Positions 4,806 through 28,284 of a stretch of DNA of 32,000 bases are shown here, piece after piece. Made by a program: the position numbers and the translations under genes. Every line of letters begins with the position of its first letter. The stretch's first letter is position 1. Origin of the DNA: Sedimentibacter sp. (GTDB taxonomy: Bacteria > Bacillota > Clostridia > Tissierellales > Sedimentibacteraceae); assembly GCA_040770765.1 (NCBI GenBank), contig JAXGIL010000001.1, positions 434,538 to 466,537 on the forward strand. The letters run 5' to 3'. The notes under the pieces are model-generated. The model made no database searches. It was not told the DNA's origin and worked only from the letters and a program-made list of their open reading frames with translations.

Positions 4806-5411
4806 ATGGCAAATAAATGTATGAATTGTAAGGCAGACCTCCGGGAGGGTGCCAAATTCTGTCAAGCATGCGGCACCAAGGTCCCATTAAAGCAAAAATC
4901 TAAAATAACACAAGCAAAATTCTGTATTAAATGCGGGGCTCCTTTAAAAAAGGGGGCTAAATTCTGCACGAAATGCGGAGCGGAGACAGTGAAGAAAAAG
5001 ACAGCCGACCTGAATATTTACGTGGATGAACCTGTGATTTCCGTCTCTGTAAGCGACCAGCCGCCGGTAGAAGACATAAAGGAAAAGCCGCCCACAGTAG
5101 AAATAATTGACCAAGCCCGGGAAGGCAAAAAAATAAGACAAAGGCCTCCAAAGCAGATTCCACAGGCTAATAAAAACTATAGGGATACAGATGTAGAAAT
5201 AGACAAGAGTTCAAAGGAAACAAAAAATTATGTGGAAGATAAGATTAAAAAGCAAGCGGCAAACTTGGGAAAAAAGGCTCTCACAAACCTGCTCAATCAG
5301 ACTCTTTCAGCATCAGACACAGCAGGAGAAATGCGAATTCCCATGAATGACGCCCAGAAATCCTGCTTGACAGATGTAATTAGTGAACTGACTAAAATGT
5401 TGGGGAGGTGA
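4806..5411 (+). CDS. Double zinc-ribbon protein with a K/E/P-rich, probably disordered, tail
   Basis: 201 aa. Two consecutive ribbons are present: CMNCKADLREGAKFCQACG and CIKCGAPLKKGAKFCTKCG. GGGGGG/AAG lies upstream of the start. The stop TGA (5409-5411) sits inside the Shine-Dalgarno region of the next gene. Confidence 0.7.
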   Translation: MANKCMNCKADLREGAKFCQACGTKVPLKQKSKITQAKFCIKCGAPLKKGAKFCTKCGAETVKKKTADLNIYVDEPVISVSVSDQPPVEDIKEKPPTVEIIDQAREGKKIRQRPPKQIPQANKNYRDTDVEIDKSSKETKNYVEDKIKKQAANLGKKALTNLLNQTLSASDTAGEMRIPMNDAQKSCLTDVISELTKMLGR

Positions 5412-5416
5412 AGGGA

Positions 5417-8400
5417 ATGAAAAGGAATAGTCTTATTTTTACTCTGATGTTTGTATTGATTATTTCAACATTATTTTACCCTAAAAAGGCAATGGCATTA
5501 GTTTTGAATGATTATCCTAACCTTGAGTCTGCAACGATTAGATTTTCTTTTATTACTGCCGGGTATAAAGCAGCTCTTGATGATGATGGTGCCCACAATG
5601 AATTAGACTACTTAACATTGAGAATGGGAGAACCTGTAAAATACACCTTCAATAATTTTATTACAGACAAAGAAGATCATCGTAGTCCACAGAGAACAAT
5701 TACCGGTTGGATTACCTTTGAATTAAACTATGACGAAAACGGAGCTCCTTGTATTTTTTATGAGTTAGATTTGTACACAGAAGGACTAGCTATTGATGGA
5801 ACGCTTGGTACTCGTAATTTATATAAATCCTATAGCAAGATGGAGCCTACAACAGGGATTAGAAACAAAGATATTACAGATACGTTTCATGCGTATAGTG
5901 GTAATGCTAGTTTTATTATAGATGACCTCGAATACAGTGGGTTCTACTTTAATGTAGAAGTCATAGACATTGACGGTGAAGGAATAGGTTCCAAGGAAGT
6001 AACCACCCAAGCCGATGAAGACTCCGGCGAAACAGGAATCCTCATTCCTGCAGCCATTGCAACTGTTGTCATCGGAGGAGGAGTAGGAGTCCTTCGGAAC
6101 AGAAAAAAAGGAAAAAATAGAGATCAATCTAAACAGGAAGAAGCTGAGGAAGAAGACCAGGAGGAAAATTCAAACCGCTACGAGATGCGTATCAGAAAGG
6201 ACTTCGGAAACACTATTTCAGTGGGCAGCACCCTTACCATATATGCCCGCATAGTTGAAATCACTCCGGAGGGGGCGGAAAACTCCCGCAATGATTTGAC
6301 CGGTAAGATCAGCATAAGTTCTCCTGAATATCTTAAAGTAAGCGGTCAGACCATGGCAGGCGAGTACAAAGCTGCTTATGTAGAAGCTCCGGCTACAGGA
6401 GGAATTATCCCTTCCGAGGCCAAGGTATCCTTCCGGTTTGCAGGATCTGGCAGCAGCTTTACAAACCATGTGGTATTCCAAATCGTAGAGGAAAAAATTG
6501 TATTCGGCCAGAAAAATCTTACCCTGCCTGCCTGCTATGAAAAGACCGAGCGTCTGCCCTTTGCAGTCTTTGGTATGGGAGACAATGCGGAGGTCACTGC
6601 AGAAATAATCAGGGATGACGGTTACAGCGTGGAGGTTGAACCTGGAGAAGAAAAGGGACTTTACTATGCTCTCATAACAGAAAAGAAAAAAACCGGAGGA
6701 CAAGCCGGAGACTATGATCCATATAGCTTGGAAGTTAAGGCGGTCAGCGGGGAGAGAAGTGTAACCGGAAACCTTCCCATCTATAGATACCACATGGGAC
6801 TTAGGCTTGATTTGGATTCAATCGGTTGCTATGTAGAGAGCTATGACCCGCTCAACCATCACAACATCAAATTTCGCTTTGAGGTAGATGGTAAACAGTA
6901 CGTTCCGGCAGAATCTAAGGCGACTTTAACATTCTTCAACTGGGATCCTGATACCCATAGTATAATCCGAATTGCGCCTGCAAACTTTGATTATAAAATT
7001 CAGGCTCTTAATGATGAGGACCAGACCCTATTAGAAAAACTGGCAATCCAATGTCAGGTTAACGACCGAATTCCAAGTGGAGGACGCGCTTTAATTTTCC
7101 GCTGTTGTAAAGGAGCTCTGGACACACCGAGCCGTATTAAGGCTAAAGTGACTCTAACCATGATCCGGGGAGATGAAAAATACCCAGTAGAAAAAGAAGT
7201 GTTACTTTGCTCTCAACCACCGCGCAAGTCAAAAGGCATGGAAGATGCCATGGCCATGCTGAAATCAGACCATTTTATCACAGAACAGCTTCGACGTATC
7301 AAGAGTAAAATTTGGGAACTTAACTACTTGCACAGGCTATTCCCTCTGGACAAATTCATTGATGTTATGCTAAAGGGCTATCACGAAGCCTACGGCTATG
7401 ATGCCAAACAGTATGAATTAGTAAAGCAGACCTGGGGTGGTTTTTTACAAGGAACAGTAACAGGTGCTTATGCTGATGTCAAGCCTGTAACCTTAGGGGA
7501 TGAAATGAAACTCTTTGTGGAAAGCTATCTGCAAACGGCGGAATCGGTAGAGAACTCTTTGGGCTTCATGGGACGTATGGCTCTTGGTGTTGCTACCTTA
7601 GGCTGCTCAGACGTAGTGTTCACCTCCTTAGAGGTAGTCCGTGAAATGAAGGATTATGCGGAAAAAGGCGGCGACAGCGTTCTGGACGCGTTCATTGTAG
7701 GCGCCAAGATAGTTACTATTGAATACCTTTCAGACTATGCCATGGATGCCGGACTTGATAAACTGAAAAAGGTTGCTTCAAACTCTGATGTTAAGCAGGC
7801 AGTAAAAGAAATGAAAGAAGATGCGGCAGAAAGCGTACAGATATTCAAAACAGCAATTACAGGCAAGAATACACGGGCTGCCATTACAGATTCTGTCCAG
7901 GCAGGAAAGGCAGCAGCAGTAAAAGCAGACCTCCTTATAGAGACAGGCAGGAAGGGAATCAGGAAAACAACAGACCAAATTGAACTGGACGAAGCTTTAT
8001 TGGAGGGCAGAAGGTTTGCAAAAGAACAGGTGGAAAATCTTCAGGCTGCAGCATGGCAGTTTGAGTTGAATCCCACAGCAGCCAACCGTAAACTTATGAA
8101 TGAGATGGCTGTTAAGGTACAGGAAAACAAACTGGCAATGTACGCACTCCAGGACTATGCCGACGAGAGCTTGGATTCAGCCAGGAAATCCTTTAATGAG
8201 ACCTTGGCTTCCTTCTATGGAAGTGCCGACAGCATAGCCAAAGACAAATTGTCATCCATCACAGGCATACCTGCTGACAGAATACAAATTCTCAATGCCA
8301 GTTCTTCATCACAGGAACTGATGAGGCGTGGAAAGAAAACCACCATAGATAGAGACTGGACTGCCTATTATGTGAATTCCAAGGGTGAAAATGTATATTT

Positions 8401-8998
8401 CAACCAGAGTATGACAGAACAAATTTACAACGACAGTTTTTTTGAAGCCTCCCAGGGCTTCAAAAACAAAGATGCAGATTTTTCAACGCGCTATGCCCAA
8501 AGTACAGACCAGACTGTAATTGAGGATGTTATGGGTCATAGGGAAAGCTATGGCAAGGACCTTGATAAGATGCTTGATAAAAAGCTCCACCATGTGGCTT
8601 TGGATAATCCCGACAAGGTTGCAGCCACTGTTTCCGAAAAGGGCAAGGAGTGGTTCCAAAGGGGTGATGAACTCATGGCAAAAGCAAGTGAAGTTGCCGA
8701 CCCTTCTAAAAGACAGCTTATTCTGGCTGACGCTATAAGTCAAAAAATGGAGGGCAACCGCCAGCTTGTAAAACAGTTTGACAATTGCATCAATCCGAGG
8801 GATGTAGCAAGAAGAAGCGGTGCTGAGGCCAGCAAAATACCTGAAAGGCTTAGGGTTGCCGTAGAGATGTGCCGTAAACAGTTAGAGAAGGACAGCAACA
8901 TCCCCTTTACTGACCTGGAAAACAGCCTTCAAGCTTTAGGGTTTACACCGGATAGCCTTGCCGACTCCCTTGGCCAAGTTATACGGCAAATAGGGTGA
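5417..8998 (+). CDS. Large (1193 aa) membrane protein: signal/anchor, ~180-aa outside domain, one TM helix, ~950-aa cytoplasmic region; function unknown
   Basis: Track ORF 5408..8998, trimmed to the ATG at 5417 with GGGGAGGTG 6 nt upstream. The N-terminus is MKRNSLIFTLMFVLIISTLFYPKKAMA. The TM helix GILIPAAIATVVIGGGVGVL is followed by RNRKKGKNRDQSKQEEAEEEDQEE, which fits the positive-inside rule. The rest looks like beta-rich modules followed by a long helical region. I recognised no catalytic motif. Confidence 0.75.
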   Translation: MKRNSLIFTLMFVLIISTLFYPKKAMALVLNDYPNLESATIRFSFITAGYKAALDDDGAHNELDYLTLRMGEPVKYTFNNFITDKEDHRSPQRTITGWITFELNYDENGAPCIFYELDLYTEGLAIDGTLGTRNLYKSYSKMEPTTGIRNKDITDTFHAYSGNASFIIDDLEYSGFYFNVEVIDIDGEGIGSKEVTTQADEDSGETGILIPAAIATVVIGGGVGVLRNRKKGKNRDQSKQEEAEEEDQEENSNRYEMRIRKDFGNTISVGSTLTIYARIVEITPEGAENSRNDLTGKISISSPEYLKVSGQTMAGEYKAAYVEAPATGGIIPSEAKVSFRFAGSGSSFTNHVVFQIVEEKIVFGQKNLTLPACYEKTERLPFAVFGMGDNAEVTAEIIRDDGYSVEVEPGEEKGLYYALITEKKKTGGQAGDYDPYSLEVKAVSGERSVTGNLPIYRYHMGLRLDLDSIGCYVESYDPLNHHNIKFRFEVDGKQYVPAESKATLTFFNWDPDTHSIIRIAPANFDYKIQALNDEDQTLLEKLAIQCQVNDRIPSGGRALIFRCCKGALDTPSRIKAKVTLTMIRGDEKYPVEKEVLLCSQPPRKSKGMEDAMAMLKSDHFITEQLRRIKSKIWELNYLHRLFPLDKFIDVMLKGYHEAYGYDAKQYELVKQTWGGFLQGTVTGAYADVKPVTLGDEMKLFVESYLQTAESVENSLGFMGRMALGVATLGCSDVVFTSLEVVREMKDYAEKGGDSVLDAFIVGAKIVTIEYLSDYAMDAGLDKLKKVASNSDVKQAVKEMKEDAAESVQIFKTAITGKNTRAAITDSVQAGKAAAVKADLLIETGRKGIRKTTDQIELDEALLEGRRFAKEQVENLQAAAWQFELNPTAANRKLMNEMAVKVQENKLAMYALQDYADESLDSARKSFNETLASFYGSADSIAKDKLSSITGIPADRIQILNASSSSQELMRRGKKTTIDRDWTAYYVNSKGENVYFNQSMTEQIYNDSFFEASQGFKNKDADFSTRYAQSTDQTVIEDVMGHRESYGKDLDKMLDKKLHHVALDNPDKVAATVSEKGKEWFQRGDELMAKASEVADPSKRQLILADAISQKMEGNRQLVKQFDNCINPRDVARRSGAEASKIPERLRVAVEMCRKQLEKDSNIPFTDLENSLQALGFTPDSLADSLGQVIRQIG

Positions 8999-12127: not shown

Positions 12128-13627
12128 TCAATAAGAAATTGTCTTCTGTATAAAAGTTCCTTTTTTCAAATCATCAAAAGCCTTATTCAATTCTTCCTTA
12201 GTGTTCATGACAATAGGGCCACCCCAGGATATCGGTTCATCCAGCCGTATTGAACTTATGAATAAAACCTGGGCTTTTTTATCGGTAGCCTTTATATCTA
12301 CCTGGTCACCTGAGGTGAGTTTTACCGCCGTCTTTTCCTTTACCAGGACACCACCTATATATGCGTCTCCTAATAGGGTAAACACCATGACAGAGCGCTC
12401 ACTTTCTGTATTCAAAATAACTGATGCATTTGGGTTTAGGTGCAGATCGTAATAATCAAGGGGAAGATATTTGCTCATATATCCTTTTTTTCCTTCAAAT
12501 TCGCCCGCTTCGTAATAATAAGTTCCCTTGTAATCGAGAAATTCGAATCCGAGTTTTTCATAAGGGGATGCCAGCACTATATTTTCATCAAACGGCATAT
12601 TGTATAGAGTACTAATAGCAATTCCAAGCGCCTCATGAATTGTATTGTCAAAGAAGGCAACGGGGGTAAGCAATATGTCCTCACCATCCGAATCACCAAA
12701 CGCCTTCTGCACGATCGGCTCCATGACAGCGCGCTCACAACCAAAGCTACTTTCCGCAACATCATAGACATAGGTGTAGTTTTCTTCCGTGTTTACATTA
12801 AACATCCATACGACATAGGCGTTGTGTACGGGATAGAAGCCGACTGCATTCTTATAGCCGCTCTCAGCTCCCGTAACAACGCGAATGCAATTTTGCCAAT
12901 CCGGCTGCGGCGGATCGCCCCATTCGCTGTGATTCAGTCGTATGTCATATTCGCTCGTTTCGTACAACGCCAGCTTATCGCCATCGTTGAAGATAAATCC
13001 GAGCTCTGCAAGCGTAGTCGGAGGGGGTAAAATTTCAAAATCCCTTCCTTCCAGATTTGCATATATGCCATCAAGTGGCGTATAGTCAGAGGCAGGGCAG
13101 TCCGCCAAGTACAAATACCTTATCCTTGTCAGCCCGGACAGCGGCGAAAGGTCACTCACCCCCGTACCGGGAAGCGCAAGCACGATCAGATTTGTCAGCC
13201 CCACAAGCGGCGCGATATCTGCAATCGGGTTGCCGCCCAGCGCAAGTATGGTGAGTTTACTCAGCCCAGCCAGCGGCGATAAGTCGGTTATCTCATGGAA
13301 AGAGAGGTCAAGTCTTTCGAGGTTTTTGAAGTATTCCAGACCGCCGATCTCCCGTACCGGCACAGCATCGGGAAGAAGCCGCTGCCATTCATAAGAAAGG
13401 TTCAGCGCAGTCACAGCCTCAGCATCGGCAAGCGTAATGTCACCATCTGGCTTGCACATCGCGGCGCGCACCATTGCCTCCAGCGTTGGGTCGGTAAATT
13501 CAACTGTCCGCGTCGGCTGTTGTGTAGTGGGCGATTGCGTATCCTCCGGCTCGGACACCGGCGACGAACAAGCCGCCAGAGCGCAAAACATTGCCATGAC
13601 TAACAGGATGATAAAAATCTTTTTCAT
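12128..13627 (-). CDS. Chimeric ORF: lipoprotein with internalin-like LRRs and an unknown middle domain, fused in frame to a pirin C-terminal half
   Basis: The signal peptide has a lipobox (MKKIFIILLVMAMFCALAAC). About 22-residue LRRs are present (LERLDLSFHEITDLSPLAGLSKLTILALGGNPIADIAPLVGLTNLIVLALPGTGVSDLSPLSGL). The last ~125 aa, ending ISWGGPIVMNTKEELNKAFDDLKKGTF, match the pirin C-terminal domain signature (GPFVMNT..EI.qA..dy..G.f). AAAGGAG lies upstream of the ATG at 13627. Confidence 0.7.
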   Translation of the reverse strand: MKKIFIILLVMAMFCALAACSSPVSEPEDTQSPTTQQPTRTVEFTDPTLEAMVRAAMCKPDGDITLADAEAVTALNLSYEWQRLLPDAVPVREIGGLEYFKNLERLDLSFHEITDLSPLAGLSKLTILALGGNPIADIAPLVGLTNLIVLALPGTGVSDLSPLSGLTRIRYLYLADCPASDYTPLDGIYANLEGRDFEILPPPTTLAELGFIFNDGDKLALYETSEYDIRLNHSEWGDPPQPDWQNCIRVVTGAESGYKNAVGFYPVHNAYVVWMFNVNTEENYTYVYDVAESSFGCERAVMEPIVQKAFGDSDGEDILLTPVAFFDNTIHEALGIAISTLYNMPFDENIVLASPYEKLGFEFLDYKGTYYYEAGEFEGKKGYMSKYLPLDYYDLHLNPNASVILNTESERSVMVFTLLGDAYIGGVLVKEKTAVKLTSGDQVDIKATDKKAQVLFISSIRLDEPISWGGPIVMNTKEELNKAFDDLKKGTFIQKTISY

Positions 13628-14023: not shown

Positions 14024-14998
14024 CTATTCATCAAGGAATGTGATAGTTCCCTCGAATGTCTTTTTGAGATTTTCATGGGTAGCGGAATCCTTATGACACC
14101 GTACCGTCAGTTTCGGGCAATCTACAAACGGACTAACCTCGGCAAAATGTACATCGCTGTTCTCAATGATCACCAATTCCAGACTAGGGCAATTAACAAA
14201 AACATAGGCCTCTAACTCAGCAACACTTTGCGGCAAGGTTACCATTTCTATATAATCTCTGTTTCTAAAAACATTGGACGCAATTTTTGTAGGACTACCC
14301 GGAATGGTAAAGCGTTTCTTTATTCCGTGATATGCTTTCACTGTGGAGCCGATCCATTCAAAATCGTTCATGGTTGCCTCGGAATTCTGGATGCGATCAA
14401 TATTCATGCGATCTTGTTCTGATAAGGTAAAGGTCGAGGGAGCAGGCTTGTTTTCGGGTTGTGGAGTTTGCGTGACAGCGGACGCCAGAGCGCTTTTGCC
14501 AGCCCTCAATCCCAACCTTTCAAAAGCAGTTGAGTACTTATATGCATACTCATCTTCATTCATCAAATATTTCAGGATAGCTTGCTTCGTTCCAATCTGA
14601 AGCTTTATCCCCGCACGAAGCGTTGTTTCCTCCAAATGTACGGCGAGAAAAGGCTTTTTTTCATCAATGGCAAAATTGATCTCATTTTGCACGTTTGGAG
14701 AAACGGCAGAATGCGGCGTAATGAATACAACAAACAAAGCGCATTTTTCAAGCGCATTGGCAATCTCATCTGTCCACTCATTACCCGGAGCAATTCCCTC
14801 GTCATACCAAACATGATATCCGGCAGTATGGAATGTGGTAATCTCGGAATAGACCTTTGTGGCATCAAGATGAGCATAGCTGATAAATATGTACGGCTCG
14901 CTTCCATGGTAGGCCGGAAACGGAATACGATTTGAATGTATCTCTGTCGTCTGCTGCCCCTCGGCTGTCTTTTTCTTAAACTTATCGAAAAACCCCAT
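14024..14998 (-). CDS. TIR-domain protein with a C-terminal BspA-type leucine-rich repeat (LRR_5-like) domain
   Basis: The N-terminal region EPYIFISYAHLDATKVYSEI..GYHVWYDEGIAPGNEWTDEIANALEKCALFVVFITPHSAVSPNVQNEINFAI follows the TIR_2 pattern (FISY strand, W..eI...L, S...v..E..fA) and retains the conserved Glu. The C-terminal region FEWIGSTVKAYHGIKKRFTIPGSPTKIASNVFRNRDYIEMVTLPQSVAELEAYVFVNCPSLELVII follows the BspA LRR pattern. The SD AAGGAG lies inside the last codons of the upstream gene. Confidence 0.85.
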   Translation of the reverse strand: MGFFDKFKKKTAEGQQTTEIHSNRIPFPAYHGSEPYIFISYAHLDATKVYSEITTFHTAGYHVWYDEGIAPGNEWTDEIANALEKCALFVVFITPHSAVSPNVQNEINFAIDEKKPFLAVHLEETTLRAGIKLQIGTKQAILKYLMNEDEYAYKYSTAFERLGLRAGKSALASAVTQTPQPENKPAPSTFTLSEQDRMNIDRIQNSEATMNDFEWIGSTVKAYHGIKKRFTIPGSPTKIASNVFRNRDYIEMVTLPQSVAELEAYVFVNCPSLELVIIENSDVHFAEVSPFVDCPKLTVRCHKDSATHENLKKTFEGTITFLDE

Positions 14999-15003
14999 TA
15001 TTT

Positions 15004-16740
15004 TTACTCTCCTTTTACAACGATTTTCATGCCAATGCGCGATAGCAACACTGGAATATTCTCAATAGTGTCGCGGTCAAGTTGCTTTATTTCTTCACTT
15101 AATTCATCATAAGGAATGAGATACGGAGATTCCTTTTTAGCGGAATCTACGGCAACCCCAAGTGTCCACCCTGTGGAAATACGCTCCTGTACCCACCCAT
15201 CATGCTCTTTTTCTGCAAGAGCCTCGACATATTCTGTTGGTATTCTCGTTACTGCTTTACCATCGCCGCCGACTGGCTGCATTGCATATCCCATTTCAAA
15301 AAGCTTCTCTGGAATAGTCATTGCCTGTCGGAGGTTGGAATACTTTAGTGAATCCGTCAAACTGTCAAAATCGGGATATTTTAAAGGCTTGTCAGGGTAG
15401 CGTTCCAGCTGCTTTTCGTTGTACAACGCATGAATTGCCCGTGCAAGTTTCTCCAAATCCTCTAATTGAGGACGAGGCTCCACATGGCTACGAACTACAG
15501 GTAACACCTGCGTCTTTACTGCCTTGCATTGAATATCGACACTTCCGAACAATTCATTCAGATCAAGTATTTTTTGGAGTAAATCTGTCTTCTCTTGTGC
15601 AAAAGTCTCAGGCAAAGAACCATTGTGTGTGATAAAAGTTACAGCGAGTCTCTCCAAATTAATTGTAACATCTGCTTCAGCGGCAAGCACCCGTAACTTA
15701 TCTTTAATGCCGTAAGCCTCGCGGTTCCATTCCTGTAACTCATCACAAAGAATAAGCAGGAAAGCAATGGGGTGTGTTTCCGGTTTCATCGCACCGAGAT
15801 CATACGGTTTTTTCATCATAATATTCTTATAACAGTTGTGAAGCAAAATTGCACTTGCGCTGTCAAGTACCGGCCAGAAGAAATACTCTGGCTTATATCC
15901 GGCAGATTGGATAAGGTATGCATACCATTTCAAAACAATGATGGAACTGTAATAACCGTGGTCGATAAAACCGAGTTTTGCCATCACATTCACGAAATCG
16001 TTCAACGAGAATATGATCTGCTTCAGGTCGACGCCAAGCGATGTGTGCAGTTTATGTGCCAGTAAATCCACAGGCTTGAGCATATCAATATATACAGCGT
16101 CTTCATACCGTCTGTCATAACATTCGATGAACTGTCGCTTTGGTATGATTTCCGCAATACTATTAAGCTCATTGAAGTTTTCAAAGGAAAGTTGTACATT
16201 GACCTTTTCCGTGCCTCCGCCAGCGCCAGTGGCGAAGTCAATGAATTTGTTTATTTGCCTCCCAACAATCTCAACGGGGTAGCCCACATCATGAAACAAC
16301 GAGGCGAGTCCCCAACGATAAAAGAATTCTTCGTTTTTTGTATCATAGGAGAACGGATAAACCTTTTTATCCATGTTAGTCTTGTGAAATGCTACTCGGT
16401 ATTTCCTATTGCCGGAATATATACATAAACCGAGAATGAACACATTAACCGAGTGTACATAATGGTCGCGTTGCTTGTCAATGAGTATCGAAGCATTCTC
16501 CTCGTAGTTTTTCAACACGTCCAACAGGTCAACAAAAGGATTGGACTGCCCTGCCATCCTGATGCGATAGCTGTCAAGGAAAGTTCTGTATACCGCAAAA
16601 GCGGTATCTTTTGTTTCGTTCCTCAAAAACTCCAGAATTGCTTGCTGCATGAATATCTTATAGCAGTGTCCTTTCTGAATATCCTCAAAGACATCCAAGT
16701 CATCGAAAAACTGTACTACATATTCAGATAGTTTGTTCAT
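15004..16740 (-). CDS. HD-superfamily-like phosphohydrolase domain fused to two C-terminal RyR-type repeats
   Basis: Track ORF 15004..16782, trimmed to the ATG at 16740 with AGAGAGGAA 6 nt upstream. H...HD...H...D-type motifs are RDHYVHSVNVFILG, LASLFHDVGYPVE, IDHGYYS, AILLHN and LLILCDELQEWNRE. The C-terminal sequence EALAEKEHDGWVQERISTGWTLGVAVDSAKKESPYLIPYDELSEEIKQLDRDTIENIPVLLSRIGMKI closely follows the RyR-domain consensus as I remember it. A more divergent repeat (LARAIHALYNEKQL...LKYSNLRQAMTIPEKLFEMGY) precedes it. Confidence 0.8.
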   Translation of the reverse strand: MNKLSEYVVQFFDDLDVFEDIQKGHCYKIFMQQAILEFLRNETKDTAFAVYRTFLDSYRIRMAGQSNPFVDLLDVLKNYEENASILIDKQRDHYVHSVNVFILGLCIYSGNRKYRVAFHKTNMDKKVYPFSYDTKNEEFFYRWGLASLFHDVGYPVEIVGRQINKFIDFATGAGGGTEKVNVQLSFENFNELNSIAEIIPKRQFIECYDRRYEDAVYIDMLKPVDLLAHKLHTSLGVDLKQIIFSLNDFVNVMAKLGFIDHGYYSSIIVLKWYAYLIQSAGYKPEYFFWPVLDSASAILLHNCYKNIMMKKPYDLGAMKPETHPIAFLLILCDELQEWNREAYGIKDKLRVLAAEADVTINLERLAVTFITHNGSLPETFAQEKTDLLQKILDLNELFGSVDIQCKAVKTQVLPVVRSHVEPRPQLEDLEKLARAIHALYNEKQLERYPDKPLKYPDFDSLTDSLKYSNLRQAMTIPEKLFEMGYAMQPVGGDGKAVTRIPTEYVEALAEKEHDGWVQERISTGWTLGVAVDSAKKESPYLIPYDELSEEIKQLDRDTIENIPVLLSRIGMKIVVKGE

Positions 16741-17159
16741 TGTGTTCCTCTCTTTCGAACGATAGTAGTTGTGCGCCGCCAAAGCACATGATAGTCAGGC
16801 GCATTTTCTGCCTGAGCAATCGGCTGAAGCGCAAGATAAATAGGCTCGCCGAATTGCGCCACCGGCACAAGCTCGGAAAGCGCGACCGTTTCGCTCTCGC
16901 CGGAGGCAAGGCGCAGACAGGTGGCGGTCTCGCCGTCGATGCTTGTCACACGGTACAAATCGTTGATCGCGCCGGTCTTTTTCGCAACCGTGCTGCCGCG
17001 CTTAATGCCAATGCCATAGAGAGGATTACATTCTGGAATGTGCTCCTAAAAAACAAGCCCGAATTTCTTTTGCTTACTTAGGCGTTCAGCCTCCTGCAGC
17101 AGTCTCTCCCGCAGGGCTTTGTCTTCCACCTGATTGATTAAATCGGTTAATGCCGCCAT
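16737..17159 (-). pseudogene. N-terminal remnant of an adenine-specific (Type III-like) DNA methyltransferase, with an in-frame TAG and truncation
   Basis: I translated this codon by codon. MAALTDLINQVEDKALRERLLQEAERLSKQKKFGLVF is followed by TAG (17046-17048), then EHIPECNPLYGIGIKRGSTVAKKTGAINDLYRVTSIDGETATCLRLASGESETVALSELVPVAQFGEPIYLALQPIAQAENAPDYHVL. FGLVFEEH.PE and FGEPIYP.L match remembered N-termini of this methyltransferase family. The expected ENYHAL motif appears only after a frameshift (AAHNYY), and no catalytic DPPY region follows. Confidence 0.5.
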
Positions 17160-17164
17160 ATTCT

Positions 17165-17458
17165 TTACTCCCATCTCTGGGTCTTTGGCTCTATTCTACT
17201 ATCCGCGTTGTCCCTAATAACGGACTTATCATTCTCCGCGCTCGGTTCAGCGGTATCATCGGGGACAATTTCCATAATATCGCCGATATCGCAATGGAGC
17301 GCCGTGCAGATTTTCAGCAGCACCGAATTGTTTACATTTCCATCGTTGCCGAGCTTCGCAACGGAGGTGGGGCTGATGTCGCTCATCTGACAGAGCGTCT
17401 TCTTATTTATTTCCTTATCAATCAGTAGTTTCCACAGCTTCTTGTAGGTGAATCGCAT
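17165..17458 (-). CDS. XRE/Cro-type helix-turn-helix transcriptional regulator
   Basis: KKLWKLLIDKEINKKTLCQMSDISPTSVAKLGNDGNVNNSVLLKICTALHCDIGDIMEIV is a typical HTH_26/XRE pattern. The stop lies 5 nt before the methyltransferase-remnant ATG. Confidence 0.8.
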   Translation of the reverse strand: MRFTYKKLWKLLIDKEINKKTLCQMSDISPTSVAKLGNDGNVNNSVLLKICTALHCDIGDIMEIVPDDTAEPSAENDKSVIRDNADSRIEPKTQRWE

Positions 17459-17489: not shown

Positions 17490-17687
17490 TCAGATTACAT
17501 CATTCAGAAAACCGTAACTTCCTTCTTCACGTCCTTTGACGAATTTTGTGACGGTTGCTCCGGCTTCTTCATATTGCAGGTGTGGAATATGGTCTAGATT
17601 CTCTATTACAATCAATTGTCCCTCATCCTGATGATTGATGAAGTATTGGAAAAGTGCTGTGCGCATACTCTCCGGGGCGGAAATCAA
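17490..17687 (-). pseudogene. Possible C-terminal tail fragment of an SMC/ABC-type (DUF3732-like) ATPase
   Basis: A 65-aa TTG-initiated ORF. APESMRTALFQYFINHQDEGQLIVIENLDHIP resembles the region after the D-loop in such ATPases (..QvIVleHa..). There is no Walker A or N-terminal body. It overlaps the previous fragment in another frame. Confidence 0.3.
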
Positions 17688-17943
17688 TACTATTTTTTGT
17701 TAGTGTATATTTGAAACCACTACGATCTCTGCGCACGGTCAATAGCCCATCAACAATCATTTTCTTCAAGGCTTTTGCTATAATCTCACGTCGCACAGTA
17801 AACTCGCTGAAGCCAAAGTCGTTTTCTCCATTTAAGGCTCGGTCTGATAGATTAAATGAGCTGCTGTAAATCGTAATGAAATCGTAAGCGGCGGCGCGGT
17901 CAGCGGTCACCGCATCGTTGGATACGCCAAACAGCAGAGTCAT
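17623..17943 (-). pseudogene. Possible fragment of a winged-helix middle-component-like protein, as found in ABC-three-component systems
   Basis: DFITIYSSSFNLSDRALNGENDFGFSEFTVRREIIAKALKKMIVDGLLTVRRDRSGFKYTLTKNSIDF resembles the remembered pattern of these wHTH proteins. There is no SD before the ATG at 17943. The reading frame runs into the ATPase-tail fragment. Confidence 0.3.
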
Positions 17944-18100: not shown

Positions 18101-19240
18101 TGTAGGATTACAATACATGTGTTACATTAAAACATTTTATCCTATGGATTTGTGGAAAACTCTGCGAGTTTACCACAAACCCACAGGATCTGCTACTGCT
18201 ACTACTAAAATCTAATAAATAAATAGCGAGAATTACTCTCTTTATGTTATACTTTTTTTACCACAAAAAACTAACAAAAGGAGCTTCTCGCTATGGATAG
18301 TATAACACAAGATATGAAATTTCGTCTATCATTAATTAAATATGCTGAAAAATATGGTGTAACCAGGGCCGCCATTAAGTATAAGACAAACAGGCAATAT
18401 ATTTATCGCTGGAAACGTCGTTTTGACGGCTCTATTGAGTCTTTACGCAATAAATCAAGAAGACCACATCATCATCCAAATCAGCATACCGAACAAGAAA
18501 TTAAGCTTATCAATGATATGCGTAAGCGAAACATGCACGAAGGTCTTGTTGTATTTTGGGTTAAGCTTAGGCAACGTGGCTACACGAGATCTATCCCTGG
18601 GTTGTATCGCTTCTTGAAAAAGCAACAGCTTATGGCTGTTAAGCCACCTAATCCTAAATATGTTCCTAAACCTTATGAGCAGATGTCTTATCCTGGTCAA
18701 CGCGTTCAAGTTGATGTAAAGCATGTGCCGGCTGTCTGTTTGGTCGGTGATGCTAAGGGTGAAAAGTTTTACCAGTATACCGCTATTGATGAGTTTTCTC
18801 GTTTTAGATATGTTGAGGCGTTTAATGAAGCCAGTACTTATACTTCCGCATTATTTGTAAAAAACCTTACTAAAGCTTTTAAGTTCAATATTGAATGCAT
18901 CCAGACCGATAATGGCTTTGAATTTACCAAACGCTTTAAAAGTGATAAGCCTTCATTATTTGAAAAAACTCTTTCTGAACTTGGTATTAAACATAAGCTC
19001 ATTAGACCTTTTACACCAAGACATAATGGTAAAGTTGAACGCAGTCATCGCAAGGATAACGAAAGGTTCTATGCCGTTAGATCTTTCTACTCTTTTGATG
19101 ATTTCTCTAAACAATTAAGTATATACAATAAAAGAGACTACAATAATTTTCCTATGAGACCTTTATTATGGCGCTCACCTAAACAAGTTTTAGATGATTT
19201 TTTTAGCTCCAGTGTGTAACATATGTTTGACAAACCTACA
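18101..19240 (+). mobile_element. IS481-family insertion sequence (1140 bp)
   Basis: The left end TGTAGGATTACAATACATGTGTTACA (18101-18126) matches the reverse complement of the right end, TGTAGGTTTGTCAAACATATGTTACA (19215-19240), at 20 of 26 positions. The TGT...ACA termini are typical of IS481. It holds a single DDE transposase ORF. The flanks (ataattttgt / tcaataagaa) show no direct repeat. Confidence 0.8.
18293..19219 (+). CDS. IS481-family DDE transposase (N-terminal HTH plus rve integrase core)
   Basis: 308 aa. The DDE triad context is QVDVKH, IQTDNGFEF and HNGKVERSH. The N-terminal HTH region is KYAEKYGVTRAAIKYKTNRQYIYRWKRRF. AAAGGAG lies upstream. Confidence 0.9.
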   Translation: MDSITQDMKFRLSLIKYAEKYGVTRAAIKYKTNRQYIYRWKRRFDGSIESLRNKSRRPHHHPNQHTEQEIKLINDMRKRNMHEGLVVFWVKLRQRGYTRSIPGLYRFLKKQQLMAVKPPNPKYVPKPYEQMSYPGQRVQVDVKHVPAVCLVGDAKGEKFYQYTAIDEFSRFRYVEAFNEASTYTSALFVKNLTKAFKFNIECIQTDNGFEFTKRFKSDKPSLFEKTLSELGIKHKLIRPFTPRHNGKVERSHRKDNERFYAVRSFYSFDDFSKQLSIYNKRDYNNFPMRPLLWRSPKQVLDDFFSSSV

Positions 19241-22199: not shown

Positions 22200-25100
22200 A
22201 TGAATGAAATACAGCTGAATTACATAGTACAGGCAATATTAGGAGGAGCCTCCGGTTATATTACAAATGACTATGCAATTAATATGCTTTTTAAAGAATA
22301 TACTCCCTTGAAATTAGGCGGCGTTATTAAAAAAACGCGTAATGAATTTATAGAAAATTTGAGCTCACTGGTTGAAAATGACATTATAAATAAAGAAAAG
22401 CTTCTTGAAATTTTTGAAAGCCCTGAGTTTAAGTTCAAATTTGAAAAACTTACCTGTGATTTCTATGAAAACTGTCTTTATGAAACTGTGGGCAATGGCA
22501 AATTTTCGGATATTGACGGGTTTGACTCCTCATTGAAGGGTTTAGATAATTTTGTTATAGAAATTCTTAATAATAATTTGGAAAGTTTAATTGGATTAAT
22601 TGCAGATAATTTTGATGCAGAATACTTTCTGACAAATTCTCAGTTGGAAAAAATAGCAGATTCCATTTATAATTATATTAAAGATGTTATTGAAAATACT
22701 GATGCAGTTGAAAATATTTTAAAAAATATTTATGAAAACAATAAAGAATTGAATCTTTCTCATATATTTGGCTCAAATATGCAGGCGACAGATAATTTAA
22801 TAAATAAGCTTACAGAAATTGTAGCAGATAATGCTGAACATTCTGAATTATTTGCAGGATTTAATGCTGCTTTAAATGAAGCATTGAAGGTTTTTTATGA
22901 CAAGCAAATTAAAGATGTGATTAAGTTTGATAAGGAAATTATAAATTCCTTTATTTCATACATAGAAAAAAATGATATTATTCTTAAATTATGCCGCTCT
23001 TTATTTTCTTACGGGAGAAGCATAGACAAAAGCTTGTATTCCATAATAGACCCTGCCTTTGAAAGCAATCTTAAAGCATATATCGAAAATAATCTTCCCT
23101 TTGTAACTGAAAAATTAGTCAGCTACGTTCAAAAAAACAGTATTCTTATTGACAGGATTATAGAAGATACTTTAGACGAAGTAGTTAGTGAGTCGGAAGG
23201 CTTTAGAAAAAGAATGCTGCATGTGATTAAAAACACCTATTTTAATAATTTAAGCAAAAAATACAGCATTGTTGACAAAATTATTTCATATATAAGGCAG
23301 TTTACAGAGCCTGAAAAGTTGAGCATAGATATAAGCAAAAATATAATTGAGCGTTTGGATAATATAACCGTAAGCGACATTATCTCAGAAACAGAAAACA
23401 ACTTTAACCTTTATAAGGTTTATGAAATTGTTGCAGGCTTTTTAAACAAAAATGCCATGGCTATTTATGAAAATATTGAGAATTATATTTCAAAACTTCG
23501 AATAAAAGATATTTTTCCACCGATTGATTTGAATGCAGGTAAAATTTTATCTTCAGAACAGGCACAAAAATATATAAAAAATAAATCACAAAACTATGTT
23601 AAAGCTGTGTTATCCAAGCAAATAAATGAATTGCTTGAAAATAATTCAGATATATTTATTAAAAGTACAGCTGATTATTTAAAAGTAAAATTTATTGATA
23701 ACGAAATTTCAATTAAGAACTTTCTATCCAAAAAAATAAAGGATTTTAAAATAGACAATAATTATTTAAAAAGCAAGGAGCTTACAAATTTTATCCGTTT
23801 AGAATTATATGATAAATATAAGGAAGAAGCCTCTAAATTGAAAGATTTTGATTTATCTTTAGCTTTGGATAAATTAAATTCTATAGAAAATATATCAAAA
23901 AACAGCTCGGAAACCTTTCGCAAATACATAATAAGCAATACGGATATCATTTTAAAGGGCTCTATAAAGGGTGTTGTGACAGATAATTTAAATAAGCTGA
24001 GTGATGATGAGCTTGTTAAATTTGCCAATGATTTTGTAGGTCGGGAGTTAAAACCCATAATGTTTTTTGGCGGCGTATTGGGAGTTATTGCAGGCTTAAT
24101 TTTGGCTGCATTTCAGAATTCACCCCTTGACCCTGCAAATGTGAATATAGCCAACATGGCAACCTATGCTTTTGTAGGTTTTATTACAAATGTAATAGCA
24201 ATAAATATGATATTCAAGCCCTACAGAGAAATTAAGCCTTTGTCTAAAATTCCTTTTTTCCGCAATTTCTCGCTAGGCTATATAATTAAAAACCAGAAAA
24301 ACTTTGCAAAGAGTACTGCCCATTATATTGACACAAACCTATTAAGCAAAAAAAGCATAAATGAATTGTTTGAAAAGCATAAGGACAGCATTAAACAAAG
24401 CTTTATAAAAAACATTGCCGAAAATGACTATTCAACACTAAGCAGCCTGCTTGTTAAAAATAGAGAAAGTACGATAAGGGGAACATATAATTTTATTAAA
24501 AACAATATTTTAAAAAAAATAATTGTATTCAGCGACTATTTGTATGGAAGAATTTCTAAAACTTCTCTTTCAACGGTGCTTACCGGCAAGAATATTAACA
24601 GTATAAGCAATTTTGCATGTGAATGTTTAAAGACAAATAATATAAAAAGCAGAATTTTTTCAGTTATAGGTTCGGATAATAAATTAAACAAATTTTTTTC
24701 AATCGGTTTTTTAGTTAAACTTCAAAATAATAAATTTGCGAAATTGTATGGTAAATCAATTAATTATTTGAAACCTGATACAATTAAAAATAAAATTTTA
24801 CAGTATAACTATAAGTATAAGTTGCATACGAAAAGAAAAATTGAAGAAGTATTCAGTATAAATGAAGTATCAAGATTTTCCGGAAAGGTTAATAAAGCTG
24901 TTCTTTCTGAAGGTTTTAAGAATAATGTTACTCTGGCTGCCGTCAGTTTATTTAATAAATTATTTGACAGGAATAAAACCTTTGGAGATTTATTTGACGG
25001 CAGATTAAAAATATATATAGATAAAAATCTGCCTCGAATTCTTAAAAATATAACACAAAAAATAAAAAATAGTCTTTCAGAAAGCAAAAAATTTGTTTCA

Positions 25101-26234
25101 ACAGCCCTTCGGGCTGAATTCAAAAACCAGCTGGGTTTTTTTGAAAGCGGTCTGTATGCCATAATGGACGGCGATACAATTATCGACCATATTGTCGGTA
25201 AAATTATGACAGAAAAACTACCTTTGTTTATGGATATGAAAGAGGATGAAATAAACAAAATTATATCTGAATTAATAAATGACAGGTTTTACAAAGCTAA
25301 GGTTGAAGTTTTATATGCAAACTTAAATAAGCTTCAAATAAACGAAGTTGTTGAAAACTACCTAATTGCAAATAAAGAGAAGCTTGAAGCTAAAATAAAT
25401 AAAGCAATAGTTGAACTATACAATAAAATAAAATACAAAGACTTAGACGGTATTTTAGATTATTTTAACATGAGTGACTTGGAAAGTTTTATAAGCTCAT
25501 ATGACTCTGAAATTAATGCATTTGCAAATGCAATGCATTTATACTTATTGAACAATAAGGATGACTTTACCAATGAAGCTTCTTCTTATATCGGCTCTGT
25601 GGCAGAAGAATTTATGAATTTGAAATTCAATGATATTTTTAATTATGAAACTCAAGATGAAATAGACATAATTATTGGAAATGCAACAAACATTCTTTGT
25701 AAAAAGGAAGTTATAAAGAAGACTATAGAATCTTTCATAGGAACATATAAAAAATACTGTAATAATATCCACTTGGATTTTTATATTGACGAGGACGAAT
25801 TTACAAACTCTATACAAATTTTTGCACAAAATTTATTGATGAAGGATGAAACTGAAAAAACAGTAAAACAAATCCTATATTCTGTTATTAATGAAGCTGC
25901 ACAGTCTAATTTTTCTTTTATTGATTCTAAGTCAAAGGAACATATTGTTAATATATTTGTTGACTCAAGCATTGAAGGTCTTAGAAGAAACTTGGATGAT
26001 ATACTTATGTCCGTTGAATTTGACGTTATTGCAGCGGAAGAAATCGAAAAAATGGAGCCGGAGAAAATTCATCTCATGTTTAATTCATTTGGAGAAAAAT
26101 ATTTCAGAAGGCTTATGCTTTACGGATTTGGTGGGCTTGTTTTTGGAATAAACATGTATGTGGGATTTGCATTGACAGGGTTAAAAATATTGTCCGAAAC
26201 ATTTAGAATGAAATACTTCGCTGACGGCGAATGA
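22200..26234 (+). CDS. Giant (1344 aa) membrane protein with two UPF0754/DUF445-like signature modules
   Basis: The N-terminal sequence is GGASGYITNDYAINMLFKEYTPLKLGGVIKKTRNEFIENLSSLV. A second copy, at roughly residue 650, is FVGFITNVIAINMIFKPYREIKPLSKIPFFRNFSLGYIIKNQKNFAKSTAHYI. Both follow the GG.TN..AIkMLFrP...PFtPGlIpKrr.el pattern of Bacillus YheB-type UPF0754 proteins (from memory). TM helices are FFGGVLGVIAGLILAAF and, at the C-terminus, LMLYGFGGLVFGINMYVGFALTGL. The composition is extremely K/N/I/E-rich. Confidence 0.75.
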   Translation: MNEIQLNYIVQAILGGASGYITNDYAINMLFKEYTPLKLGGVIKKTRNEFIENLSSLVENDIINKEKLLEIFESPEFKFKFEKLTCDFYENCLYETVGNGKFSDIDGFDSSLKGLDNFVIEILNNNLESLIGLIADNFDAEYFLTNSQLEKIADSIYNYIKDVIENTDAVENILKNIYENNKELNLSHIFGSNMQATDNLINKLTEIVADNAEHSELFAGFNAALNEALKVFYDKQIKDVIKFDKEIINSFISYIEKNDIILKLCRSLFSYGRSIDKSLYSIIDPAFESNLKAYIENNLPFVTEKLVSYVQKNSILIDRIIEDTLDEVVSESEGFRKRMLHVIKNTYFNNLSKKYSIVDKIISYIRQFTEPEKLSIDISKNIIERLDNITVSDIISETENNFNLYKVYEIVAGFLNKNAMAIYENIENYISKLRIKDIFPPIDLNAGKILSSEQAQKYIKNKSQNYVKAVLSKQINELLENNSDIFIKSTADYLKVKFIDNEISIKNFLSKKIKDFKIDNNYLKSKELTNFIRLELYDKYKEEASKLKDFDLSLALDKLNSIENISKNSSETFRKYIISNTDIILKGSIKGVVTDNLNKLSDDELVKFANDFVGRELKPIMFFGGVLGVIAGLILAAFQNSPLDPANVNIANMATYAFVGFITNVIAINMIFKPYREIKPLSKIPFFRNFSLGYIIKNQKNFAKSTAHYIDTNLLSKKSINELFEKHKDSIKQSFIKNIAENDYSTLSSLLVKNRESTIRGTYNFIKNNILKKIIVFSDYLYGRISKTSLSTVLTGKNINSISNFACECLKTNNIKSRIFSVIGSDNKLNKFFSIGFLVKLQNNKFAKLYGKSINYLKPDTIKNKILQYNYKYKLHTKRKIEEVFSINEVSRFSGKVNKAVLSEGFKNNVTLAAVSLFNKLFDRNKTFGDLFDGRLKIYIDKNLPRILKNITQKIKNSLSESKKFVSTALRAEFKNQLGFFESGLYAIMDGDTIIDHIVGKIMTEKLPLFMDMKEDEINKIISELINDRFYKAKVEVLYANLNKLQINEVVENYLIANKEKLEAKINKAIVELYNKIKYKDLDGILDYFNMSDLESFISSYDSEINAFANAMHLYLLNNKDDFTNEASSYIGSVAEEFMNLKFNDIFNYETQDEIDIIIGNATNILCKKEVIKKTIESFIGTYKKYCNNIHLDFYIDEDEFTNSIQIFAQNLLMKDETEKTVKQILYSVINEAAQSNFSFIDSKSKEHIVNIFVDSSIEGLRRNLDDILMSVEFDVIAAEEIEKMEPEKIHLMFNSFGEKYFRRLMLYGFGGLVFGINMYVGFALTGLKILSETFRMKYFADGE

Positions 26235-27665: not shown

Positions 27666-27674
27666 CTTTTCCTC

Positions 27675-28265
27675 CTATTGTTGATGTTTTACAGCAAATC
27701 CGTTATACAATAAATCAAAAATTACATCATCTTCTTTGATTTCTTTTTCTTTATTTTGTAATTTTAATCTCGAGTATTCACCCAAAGTCCCTACAATCAA
27801 ACATGCCAAAACTTCAGATTGAATACTCTTTTTGACGACGCCCTCCTCCTTGCCTTGGTCTATTATTTTGCATATTAAACTATACATTTCAGTAATTTTT
27901 CCTATTATTGTCTTGATTGTTTTTTCTGAAATAATGTTTTTGCTGGATAATACATTGTCTATGCTCATATCAGCAAACTCTGATTCCATCTTAAGTTTTC
28001 CATTGAATAAAATCAATAATTTATTTTTAAATGTATCATCTATATTACTGACATATTCTATATTTTCAATAATTACATCAACATATTCAATGCATGCTTC
28101 ATCAAATACATCTTGTTTGCTTTCAAAATACTCGTATAAGGTTCCTTTTCCAACACCTGCACCTATTGCAATATCTTCCATCTTAGTATTATGAAACCCT
28201 TTATCTCTGAATAATGTCATGGCGGAATTTAATATATCCTGCCGCTTTTTATTTTTTTCACGCAT
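27675..28265 (-). CDS. TetR/AcrR-family transcriptional regulator
   Basis: The N-terminal HTH region is RQDILNSAMTLFRDKGFHNTKMEDIAIGAGVGKGTLYEYFESKQDVF. Confidence 0.9.
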   Translation of the reverse strand: MREKNKKRQDILNSAMTLFRDKGFHNTKMEDIAIGAGVGKGTLYEYFESKQDVFDEACIEYVDVIIENIEYVSNIDDTFKNKLLILFNGKLKMESEFADMSIDNVLSSKNIISEKTIKTIIGKITEMYSLICKIIDQGKEEGVVKKSIQSEVLACLIVGTLGEYSRLKLQNKEKEIKEDDVIFDLLYNGFAVKHQQ

Positions 28266-28284
28266 TCCTATTTGCCTCCTATAC

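Follow-up and report, generated by a model that had tools for sequence, protein, structure and literature searches.

What defines a Thoeris system is its effector, together with the signal that this effector reads. A 2025 survey, cited here for its main text and part of its supplementary tables, orders them into types I-XI and lists as effectors SIR2-SLOG, Macro-TM, caspase, DUF2270, DUF6650, SLATT (the type VII effector domain), CMP-hydrolase-TPR, TIR-SLOG, ion channel and HIT proteins, with 18 further untested putative effectors in its Fig. 1C (Yirmiya et al., bioRxiv 10.64898/2025.12.03.692087). The subject of this report is a pair of adjacent genes in a 32,000-nucleotide (nt) stretch of the genome of Sedimentibacter sp. 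(contig JAXGIL010000001.1, positions 434,538 to 466,537 of the forward strand), here called the window. Gene 1 encodes an N-terminal domain (ND) followed by a tandem RyR/Repeat12-like module, and gene 2 encodes a TIR-LRR protein. We read the pair as a self-contained cassette of two genes for Thoeris-like TIR signalling, widespread and apparently unnamed.

RyR domains became known in this field in reversed order. To our knowledge, the Thoeris sensor domains known so far (SLOG, Macro and others) were all found on the host side first, and we know of no host protein described as using a RyR domain as a receptor. Phage proteins that bind or destroy 2'/3'-cyclic ADP-ribose (cADPR) came to light before any host receptor, in two 2026 preprints in which phage RyR proteins counter Thoeris. 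RyDEP uses H75 and D117 to cut 2'/3'cADPR at its ribose-ribose bond, with W78 stacking on the adenine and H100 contacting the phosphates; six of eight tested RyDEP homologues bind signals, and the two that were characterised are sponges with nanomolar affinity (PMC13232231). RyR Tad binds 3'cADPR (dissociation constant 43 nM), 2'cADPR and cADPR through contacts from H129/W132, K147/H154 and K170/D171 (10.64898/2026.06.04.730250). No bacterial TIR-RyR operon is described in these two preprints or in the other literature searched. RyR, ryanodine and PF02026 are not effector labels in the main text and part of the supplementary tables of the survey, whose 18 untested candidates may overlap with the present family, and nothing relevant to the gene 2 TIR peptide motifs, TrkA, DUF4062 or HD was found in those same parts (10.64898/2025.12.03.692087). 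With more than 1000 clusters in at least five bacterial phyla and one archaeal metagenome-assembled genome (MAG), the gene 1 family is the obvious candidate for a host RyR receptor.

The original prediction, made from the letters alone, described two intact minus-strand genes 5 nt apart, with the Shine-Dalgarno of the TIR gene inside the last codons of the gene upstream. The coordinates agree on each point.

15004..16740, minus strand: gene 1, ND plus tandem RyR/Repeat12-like module, the conserved core of the cassette
14024..14998, minus strand: gene 2, TIR-LRR protein, candidate sensor and signal generator (ThsB-like role)
15007-15014, minus strand: Shine-Dalgarno of gene 2 (AAGGAGAG), within the final codons of gene 1, with GGAG at 15009-15012
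14075..16753, minus strand: DNA homology to the closest genomic relative, locus L001 (blastn, 84% over 2682 nt)

Gene 1 encodes 578 amino acids (aa) from the ATG at 16740 (an alternative TTG start at 16782 would give 592 aa), and gene 2 encodes 324 aa. Their junction reads ...AAAGGAGAG TAA AAATA ATG, where the stop codon of gene 1 occupies 15004-15006 and the gap occupies 14999-15003. Scanning for promoters and terminators around the pair gave nothing above shuffled expectation, and no promoter-like site was found immediately upstream of gene 1. Locus L001 belongs to an Oscillospiraceae MAG whose flanks are unrelated to those of the window. The extent of its homology (14075-16753) marks the apparent boundaries of a cassette that, judged by this comparison, moves as a unit.

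RyR (PF02026) is the sole Pfam family matched by gene 1, at residues 501-573 (1.2e-15, 58 bits against a gathering cut-off of 27.4), and a search of PDB sequences with this region returned animal RyR Repeat12 and a RyR protein of Bacteroides thetaiotaomicron (5.6e-26 to 3e-12). Foldseek was run with an AlphaFold2 model of full-length gene 1 (pLDDT 77.7). About 200 columns, from the C-terminal 160-200 residues of gene 1, aligned with the complete 205-residue Repeat12 of human RyR3 (E 3.6e-6, 25% identity, TM (target) 0.57). The module was divided as follows.

15259..15474, minus strand: R1, degenerate first RyR-type repeat, residues ~423-494, keeping AIH437..Y440 and an invariant KYSNLRQA
15022..15240, minus strand: R2, canonical RyR repeat PF02026, residues 501-573 (Pfam 1.2e-15)
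15193-15207, minus strand: EHDGW of R2, with putative pocket residues H513 and W516
15070-15081, minus strand: LDRD of R2, with putative pocket residue D555

R1 is not detected by Pfam and aligns in register with R2 by hhalign (E 0.004). Together, the Pfam match of R2, the R1/R2 alignment and the Foldseek match to RyR3 Repeat12 indicate that gene 1 ends in a predicted intramolecular Repeat12-like pair of one degenerate and one canonical repeat. The strong repeat of the original prediction (R2) is confirmed by Pfam, and the divergent one (R1) is supported by hhalign and Foldseek. H513, W516 and D555 do not vary among 25 homologues of 60-100% identity, and they match H75, W78 and D117 of RyDEP by motif spacing, not by structural superposition. 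By this spacing, three of the four RyDEP ligand residues (His, Trp and Asp) are kept. The position of the fourth (RyDEP H100, RyR Tad H154) is Ser538 in gene 1 and Ser or Thr across the family. The proposal that the RyR part may read a cADPR-type signal is backed, by analogy, by experiment on the homologous phage domains (PMC13232231; 10.64898/2026.06.04.730250).

Gene 2 combines a TIR domain with leucine-rich repeats. Against Pfam it matched TIR_2 at residues 37-126 (E 3.9e-17), ThsB_TIR (E 6.3e-6) and LRR_5 at residues 228-298 (E 3.5e-8), in agreement with the TIR_2-like domain and BspA-type LRR first read from the translation.

14543..14917, minus strand: TIR domain, residues 28-152 (TIR_2 envelope 37-126)
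14105..14317, minus strand: LRR_5 region, BspA-type, residues 228-298, candidate sensor part (Pfam)

The putative catalytic Glu of VQNEINFA is E106 (nt 14681-14683). This position is Glu in 48 of the 56 TIR domains found in loci with a gene 1 homologue, as expected of the conserved Glu noted earlier.

Known-system models did not claim the pair. Gene 1 has no PADLOC or NCBIfam family, gene 2 has weak generic TIR-domain matches and nothing more in those two collections, and neither the pair nor its non-TIR partners have a PADLOC model. A match of the pair and its recurrent partners to a known system was accordingly rejected, PADLOC and NCBIfam having given generic TIR matches and, besides these, sub-threshold SLATT matches. 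The absence of a named system was thus upheld for PADLOC, and so, within the window, was that of a SIR2, SLOG or Macro partner of the ThsA kind.

Homologues of gene 1 form more than 1000 clusters at 90% identity; among the 120 homologues listed, almost all are 570-590 aa long and annotated merely as "RyR domain-containing protein". At E<=1e-3, ND alone retrieved 1094 cluster representatives (50% identity) that differ in architecture. When each species was represented by one genome, 80 loci with a gene 1 homologue were obtained, and 78 of these, with 43-88% identity to the window protein, entered a neighbour count. The loci come from Bacillota, Chloroflexota, Bacteroidota, Actinomycetota, Acidobacteriota and a Methanobrevibacter MAG (at finer rank Oscillospiraceae, Lachnospiraceae, Peptococcaceae, Syntrophomonadaceae, Anaerolineae, Bacteroidales, Actinomycetota and Terriglobales). 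A TIR or TIR-like gene lies within 300 nt of the gene 1 homologue in 41 of the 78 loci, and within 5 kb or fused to it in 55. Genes for DUF4062, which we take to be a member of the TIR clan, were counted as TIR-like, and Pfam DUF4062 matches were seen in the loci. The pairing of TIR with gene 1 is not due to chance, and the adjacency is conserved in unrelated genomes across several phyla.

Most often the TIR gene lies 3' on the same strand and either overlaps by 4 nt or is set off by a few nucleotides; among 16 tabulated pairs, seven have the 4-nt overlap and four more have gaps of 2-13 nt. Three loci (L020, L036, L088) show the reverse gene order. One of them, L088, was reached by look-up from a TIR-LRR_5 protein 72% identical to gene 2, which has a RyR protein next door in the opposite order. 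The association is strong when approached from the ND-RyR side, and from the TIR side it is strong for close TIR relatives only.

Besides being translationally coupled and co-inherited, the two genes are tied by fusions and by sequence divergence. TIR_2 is fused to the C-terminus of ND-RyR in three homologues (P0092, P0097, P0106), and one to three TIR copies stand at the N-terminus of others (P0190, P0217, P0238, P0194, P0197, P0203, P0207). The latter architectures include TIR-ND-RyR, TIR-ND, TIRx2-ND-RyRx2 and TIRx3-ND-RyR. Behind the P0097 fusion, and translationally coupled to it, stands a further TIR-LRR_5 gene. TIR has been fused to either end of gene 1 homologues independently. Across the 16 pairs, gene 1 shares 44-88% identity with the window protein. 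The TIR domain keeps pace with it in 15 of them (52-91% identity) and falls to 27% in L071, the most distant pair. What follows the TIR domain is 25-35% identical or unalignable where the domain itself is still 52-71% identical, except in the near-identical L001 (82%), and the total length of the TIR partner ranges from 312 to 737 aa. Among the loci, TIR partners carry C-terminal regions of LRR_5, internalin-type LRR, PASTA, WD40, STAND-TPR or multi-transmembrane (multi-TM) type. By these alignments, gene 1 and the TIR domain co-diverge and the C-terminal candidate sensor region of the TIR protein is hypervariable. Three or four TIR genes can stand beside a single ND-RyR gene (L045, L048, L049), and two or three beside an ND homologue that lacks RyR (L087 two, L081 three). 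About 25 species-level loci, and the window, hold TIR and ND-RyR alone.

These observations are compatible with a Thoeris-type system in which the TIR-LRR protein senses infection and makes an ADP-ribose (ADPR)-derived signal, the Repeat12-like module binds it and ND is the effector, a reading to which we give an even chance of being right. In such a system, the LRR part of gene 2 would recognise an infection cue and switch on the TIR domain, and this domain would convert NAD+ to an ADPR-derived second messenger, most likely a cADPR isomer. The messenger would be bound by the RyR/Repeat12 module of gene 1, in the pocket of H513, W516 and D555, and binding would activate the 415-residue ND. ND may be a metal-dependent phosphohydrolase or nuclease, as its invariant H..HD..H..D residues suggest, and would stop growth or phage replication. 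Gene 1 would then take the role of ThsA, a single and conserved effector, and gene 2 that of ThsB, a variable and sometimes multi-copy sensor; this assignment follows from gene 1 being single and conserved while the TIR genes are variable and often multi-copy.

The same variability bears on a reversal of these roles, in which gene 1 would sense a phage-induced metabolite or ATP/ADP and control TIR as an NAD+-depleting effector. Repeat12 of animals and Bacteroides binds ATP, ADP or cAMP-type ligands according to PDB titles, NADase effectors are common among bacterial TIRs (Yirmiya et al., 10.64898/2025.12.03.692087), and the TIR fusions are compatible with such a reversal. The TIR partner, however, is the protein that carries hypervariable, repeat-rich, sensor-type domains (LRR, WD40, TPR-STAND) and occurs in several copies, while gene 1 is invariant, the opposite of what arms-race sensors show. 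We regard reversed roles as distinctly unlikely.

The neutral label ND is used for the proposed effector domain of the cassette as no profile method recognises an HD domain there.

15496..16740, minus strand: ND, residues 1-415, candidate effector domain
16450..16470, minus strand: RDHYVHS, residues 91-97, including H96
16276..16296, minus strand: FHDVGYP, residues 149-155, with the "HD" dyad H150-D151
15946-15963, minus strand: DHG, residues 260-262, with D260 and H261
15835-15846, minus strand: LLHN, residues 299-302, with H301
15724..15747, minus strand: CDELQEWN, residues 332-339, with D333

The ND-only AlphaFold2 model (pLDDT 92.4, pTM 0.93) has an all-alpha core (~1-345) and a small beta subdomain (353-408). 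In 25 homologues of 60-100% identity, none of the five motifs varies. In wider sets of 49-57 homologues, which reach down to 26% identity, R91, H96, D260 and H301 still do not change, conservation is 90% or more at H150, D151 and D333, and H261 is likewise invariant or at least 90% conserved. The original prediction of an HD domain in gene 1 stands in part: its H...HD...H...D motifs are present and conserved to 26% identity, but profile searches do not support the assignment. Gene 1 has no HD match in Pfam or NCBIfam, and Pfam HD left ND unmatched in all 58 distant homologues scanned. Pfam HD matches in two distant homologues (P0225, P0229) were set aside, as they fall in a separate C-terminal domain outside ND. 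A 49-sequence profile searched against PDB sequences gave RyR matches alone at E<=10 and no HD. Foldseek matches of the full-length model were dominated by RyR with no significant HD, and the ND-only model found nothing at E<1e-3 in PDB or BFVD.

Weaker resemblances do point towards HD. The best soluble Foldseek matches of ND were to the PPX/GppA C-terminal domain (probability 0.4-0.57, E 0.06-0.3, non-significant), and the dNTP triphosphohydrolase 7w1f was also matched non-significantly (E 1.3). We take both to be of the HD/PDEase-like fold class, and their agreement, although non-significant, may be read as a consistent hint. A canonical HD profile was built from homologues bearing a genuine Pfam HD domain. 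When ND was aligned by hhalign with five such domains, 15 columns around LFHDxGxP matched (probability 64%), and FHDVGYP was the sole stretch of ND to align. We therefore describe ND as HD-like but unclassified, all-alpha apart from its small beta subdomain, and we lean towards its belonging to the HD superfamily.

RyR is also found on a second type of protein in the same neighbourhoods. Beside the same TIR genes in 12 loci, mostly from Anaerolineae and Bacteroidales, lies a protein of 545-613 aa that begins with two predicted TM helices, carries a TrkA_N/RCK domain and has RyR at its C-terminus. A membrane protein of about 500 aa occurs near ND-RyR in 22 loci, often directly after it. Examples of both are given by locus and coordinates.

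L026:2484-4250: second RyR family
L030:6937-8778: second RyR family
L073:1400-3037: second RyR family (nine further loci)
L054:7712-9262: SLATT-type protein of about 500 aa
L032:7801-9528: SLATT-type protein of about 500 aa
L048:7697-9187: SLATT-type protein of about 500 aa
L081:2783-4240: SLATT-type protein of about 500 aa

The 2TM-RCK RyR proteins resemble effectors of the channel type, with the same sensor domain as their gate. The ~500-aa protein belongs to no Pfam or PADLOC family. TM helices are predicted in its C-terminal half, which also gave sub-threshold NCBIfam matches to SLATT_3/SLATT_4, and its N-terminus carries a conserved GVTGHR...AEGAD...GCGTA. The GxTGHR/AEGxD pattern looks SLOG-like to us, a resemblance that no tool confirmed: Pfam, PADLOC and the PDB profile search gave no SLOG match for this N-terminus. 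The occurrence of RyR on two unrelated front ends in the same TIR neighbourhoods, together with the SLATT-type protein, fits a modular sensor, that is, a portable signal-receiving domain. Such co-occurrence parallels the described operons in which two effectors read one signal (Yirmiya et al., 10.64898/2025.12.03.692087).

The SLATT-type protein also figures in another explanation, in which gene 1 would be a terminator or brake of the signal. The RyR module would capture the TIR product and either its H513/D555 dyad or the HD-like domain would degrade it, as a Thoeris counterpart of ring nucleases, while the effector would be TIR itself (by NAD+ depletion) or the SLOG-like/SLATT neighbour. HD-family enzymes commonly degrade second messengers (HD-GYP, PgpH and SpoT are examples), and the residues of the RyDEP catalytic dyad are conserved in gene 1. 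Thirteen loci pair ND-RyR with both the SLATT-type candidate effector and TIR genes, and ND proteins without RyR occur in TIR/SLATT operons. Yet the same H and D residues are present in non-catalytic phage sponges, and the ~25 loci and the window that hold TIR and ND-RyR alone have no separate effector. A regulator would also not be expected to be the most conserved and obligatory component, or the fusion partner of TIR. This explanation seems unlikely to us, if by no means far-fetched.

ND homologues without RyR were seen in four examined loci. In two they stand among TIR genes (L081, which also has the SLOG-like/SLATT gene, and L087), and in the other two they do not (L084, L085). At L085:4723-6269, the 422-aa homologue lies directly 3' of a 79-aa DUF2188 gene and a LexA-like S24 peptidase gene and also adjoins ParB_N-N6_N4_Mtase genes; DUF2188 is an untested putative Thoeris effector (Yirmiya et al., 10.64898/2025.12.03.692087). 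The Methanobrevibacter MAG encodes a 752-aa archaeal ND-RyR homologue with two RyR matches (L076:2333-4591), and no TIR gene is present within this 10.6-kb locus. Another Methanobrevibacter assembly (L089) has a solo TIR_2 protein whose TIR domain is 56% identical to that of gene 2.

A phage anti-defence origin of gene 1 was also considered and rejected. None of 2.9 million IMG/VR contigs holds a relative of gene 1, one weak ND match was found in 50,697 phage records, and a plasmid search gave RyR-only matches. By these searches the module is cellular, not viral.

The genes that flank the cassette bear on whether it is a defence system at all. A non-immune NAD+/ADPR housekeeping or regulatory module that lies in a variable region by chance would be in keeping with the housekeeping genes beside several loci (such as L054, with Dus and isopropylmalate synthase, and L038, with a cysteine-synthase-type PALP gene) and with the fact that no defence phenotype is known. 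Its patchy, cassette-like distribution between unrelated flanks argues the other way, as do the multi-copy, hypervariable TIR genes and the association with STAND NTPases, SLATT, MADS, restriction-modification (R-M) and Lamassu remnants, all of them traits typical of conflict systems. A non-immune function is in our judgement very unlikely.

Several observations weigh against the Thoeris-type reading, in which gene 1 is the effector of a TIR-made signal. Conservation of the RyDEP dyad (H75, D117) means that the RyR module could destroy the signal and not sense it. The effector chemistry of ND is a guess, no HD domain being recognisable there by Pfam, PDB profile or Foldseek, and the ND homologues among TIR genes in L081 and L087 indicate an ND-TIR link that is independent of RyR. 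Twelve of the 78 loci have none of the recurrent partners (several of them at contig ends), nine have ND-RyR and a SLATT protein with no TIR gene within 5 kb, and three short TIR proteins, 52-56% identical, are solo genes among housekeeping genes. The neighbour count used naive ORF (open reading frame) calling on loci that are nearly all MAG contigs, and its TIR, SLOG-like and TrkA profiles were home-built from the same loci, that for TIR being bootstrapped from gene 2. Defence-island enrichment of the family is anecdotal: a PADLOC scan of 140 sampled neighbours, with no control set, gave matches to MADS, AriA, R-M, PD-T4-6 and PDC-S03.

A broader proposal can be put forward tentatively, as we think it somewhat more apt to fail than to hold. 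In bacteria and archaea, TIR-made messengers of the cADPR type would have RyR/Repeat12 as their native receptor on the host side, portable on at least two outputs (ND and 2TM-RCK). Phage RyDEP and RyR Tad would be captured copies, animal Repeat12 would be of the same lineage, which would offer a molecular route for the long-debated action of cADPR on animal RyR channels, and ND would be a new effector fold. If a host receptor role of the gene 1 family is confirmed, Thoeris would gain a further type in which both the sensor domain and the effector fold are new, and the origin of the phage sponges would be explained. The cassette would also be a simple soluble bacterial model for the binding of cADPR-family ligands by Repeat12, including that of animal RyRs.

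The surroundings of the pair were described at first as defence-island debris, with an XRE gene, a methyltransferase stump, an ATPase fragment and an insertion sequence (IS), and profile matches bear this out.

16737-17159, minus strand: N-terminal stump of a type III-like DNA methyltransferase (weak PADLOC MTase_III match, E 0.008, model positions 1-134 of 709)
17165-17458, minus strand: XRE/HTH_26 gene, upstream of the pair and on the same strand
17490-17687, minus strand: C-terminal fragment (last 65 codons) of the Lamassu ATPase LmuB (PADLOC 5e-24, model positions 543-603 of 605)
17623-17943, minus strand: LmuC/MC2 fragment overlapping the LmuB end (PADLOC LmuC 1e-26, Pfam MC2 8e-23)
18293-19219, minus strand: rve-family transposase

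The methyltransferase stump has an in-frame TAG at 17046-17048, and its stop codon is overlapped by the gene 1 ATG (ATGA). Homology to L001 starts 13 nt upstream of this ATG, which suggests that the cassette replaced the remainder of the methyltransferase gene. The segment 17490-17943 is, by these matches, the remnant of a Lamassu (ABC-3C) system, most of which has been deleted.

Other features of the window are recorded here as separate observations. G+C content shifts sharply near the IS, from mostly 40-50% over 1-18 kb (34-37% at 9-12 kb) to 27-37% from 19 kb, with 27-30% at 21-26 kb; the window could hold an island gained by horizontal transfer, or the assembly may have been joined at the IS. 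Just downstream of the TIR-LRR gene, at 12128-13627 on the minus strand, a 499-aa predicted lipoprotein (its signal peptide ends in LAAC) combines LRR_4/LRR_8 (~residues 100-141) with a C-terminal Pirin_C cupin (392-492, 6e-18), an unusual architecture. A 1196-aa ORF without a Pfam match lies at 5408-8998, preceded by three small zinc-ribbon genes, and a 1344-aa ORF with a DUF445 region lies at 22200-26234 in a stretch of 27-29% G+C. An AcrB-type RND (resistance-nodulation-division) pump (1025 aa, 4e-248) and an OEP/TolC-type outer-membrane factor are encoded at 26430-31362 on the minus strand. They point to a diderm-type envelope in the host of this part of the window, in contrast to the closest relatives of the cassette, which are in Oscillospiraceae and Lachnospiraceae MAGs.

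Compared with described systems, ND resembles the HD superfamily (PF01966) in its invariant H...HD...H...D set on an all-alpha scaffold. It differs in having neither a Pfam or PDB-profile match nor a significant fold match, and in being about twice the usual domain size. Animal RyR Repeat12 (human RyR3 848-1055; PDB 6UHA, 6UHH, 9L90) is the best structural match of the gene 1 C-terminus: two tandem repeats form one domain, which in animals binds adenine nucleotides. The first repeat of gene 1 is degenerate, however, and its module is fused to a soluble enzyme-like domain and not to a Ca2+ channel. Gene 1 shares PF02026 with RyDEP and RyR Tad, as well as the His-x-x-Trp and Asp residues that match their pocket by spacing, and it would likewise be tied to cADPR isomers made by TIR. 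The phage proteins are small homodimers that sequester or cleave the host signal, whereas the gene 1 module is an intramolecular tandem repeat that ends a 578-aa cellular protein encoded beside TIR, and its family has Ser/Thr in place of their second pocket His (RyDEP H100, RyR Tad H154). From Thoeris the cassette differs in three respects. Gene 1 is not among the effectors listed in the consulted parts of the survey, a comparison made by description and outside which the type III effector (ThsD) falls; a RyR/Repeat12 module is not reported there as a host-side Thoeris sensor; and the gene 1 output domain has no significant sequence or fold neighbour (10.64898/2025.12.03.692087). What the cassette shares with Thoeris is an operon of two genes. 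One encodes a TIR protein that keeps the conserved Glu, has a variable sensor part and is sometimes multi-copy, and the other a single conserved partner that joins a candidate small-molecule-binding domain to an output domain. A subset of gene 1 loci also carries a SLOG-like/SLATT protein.

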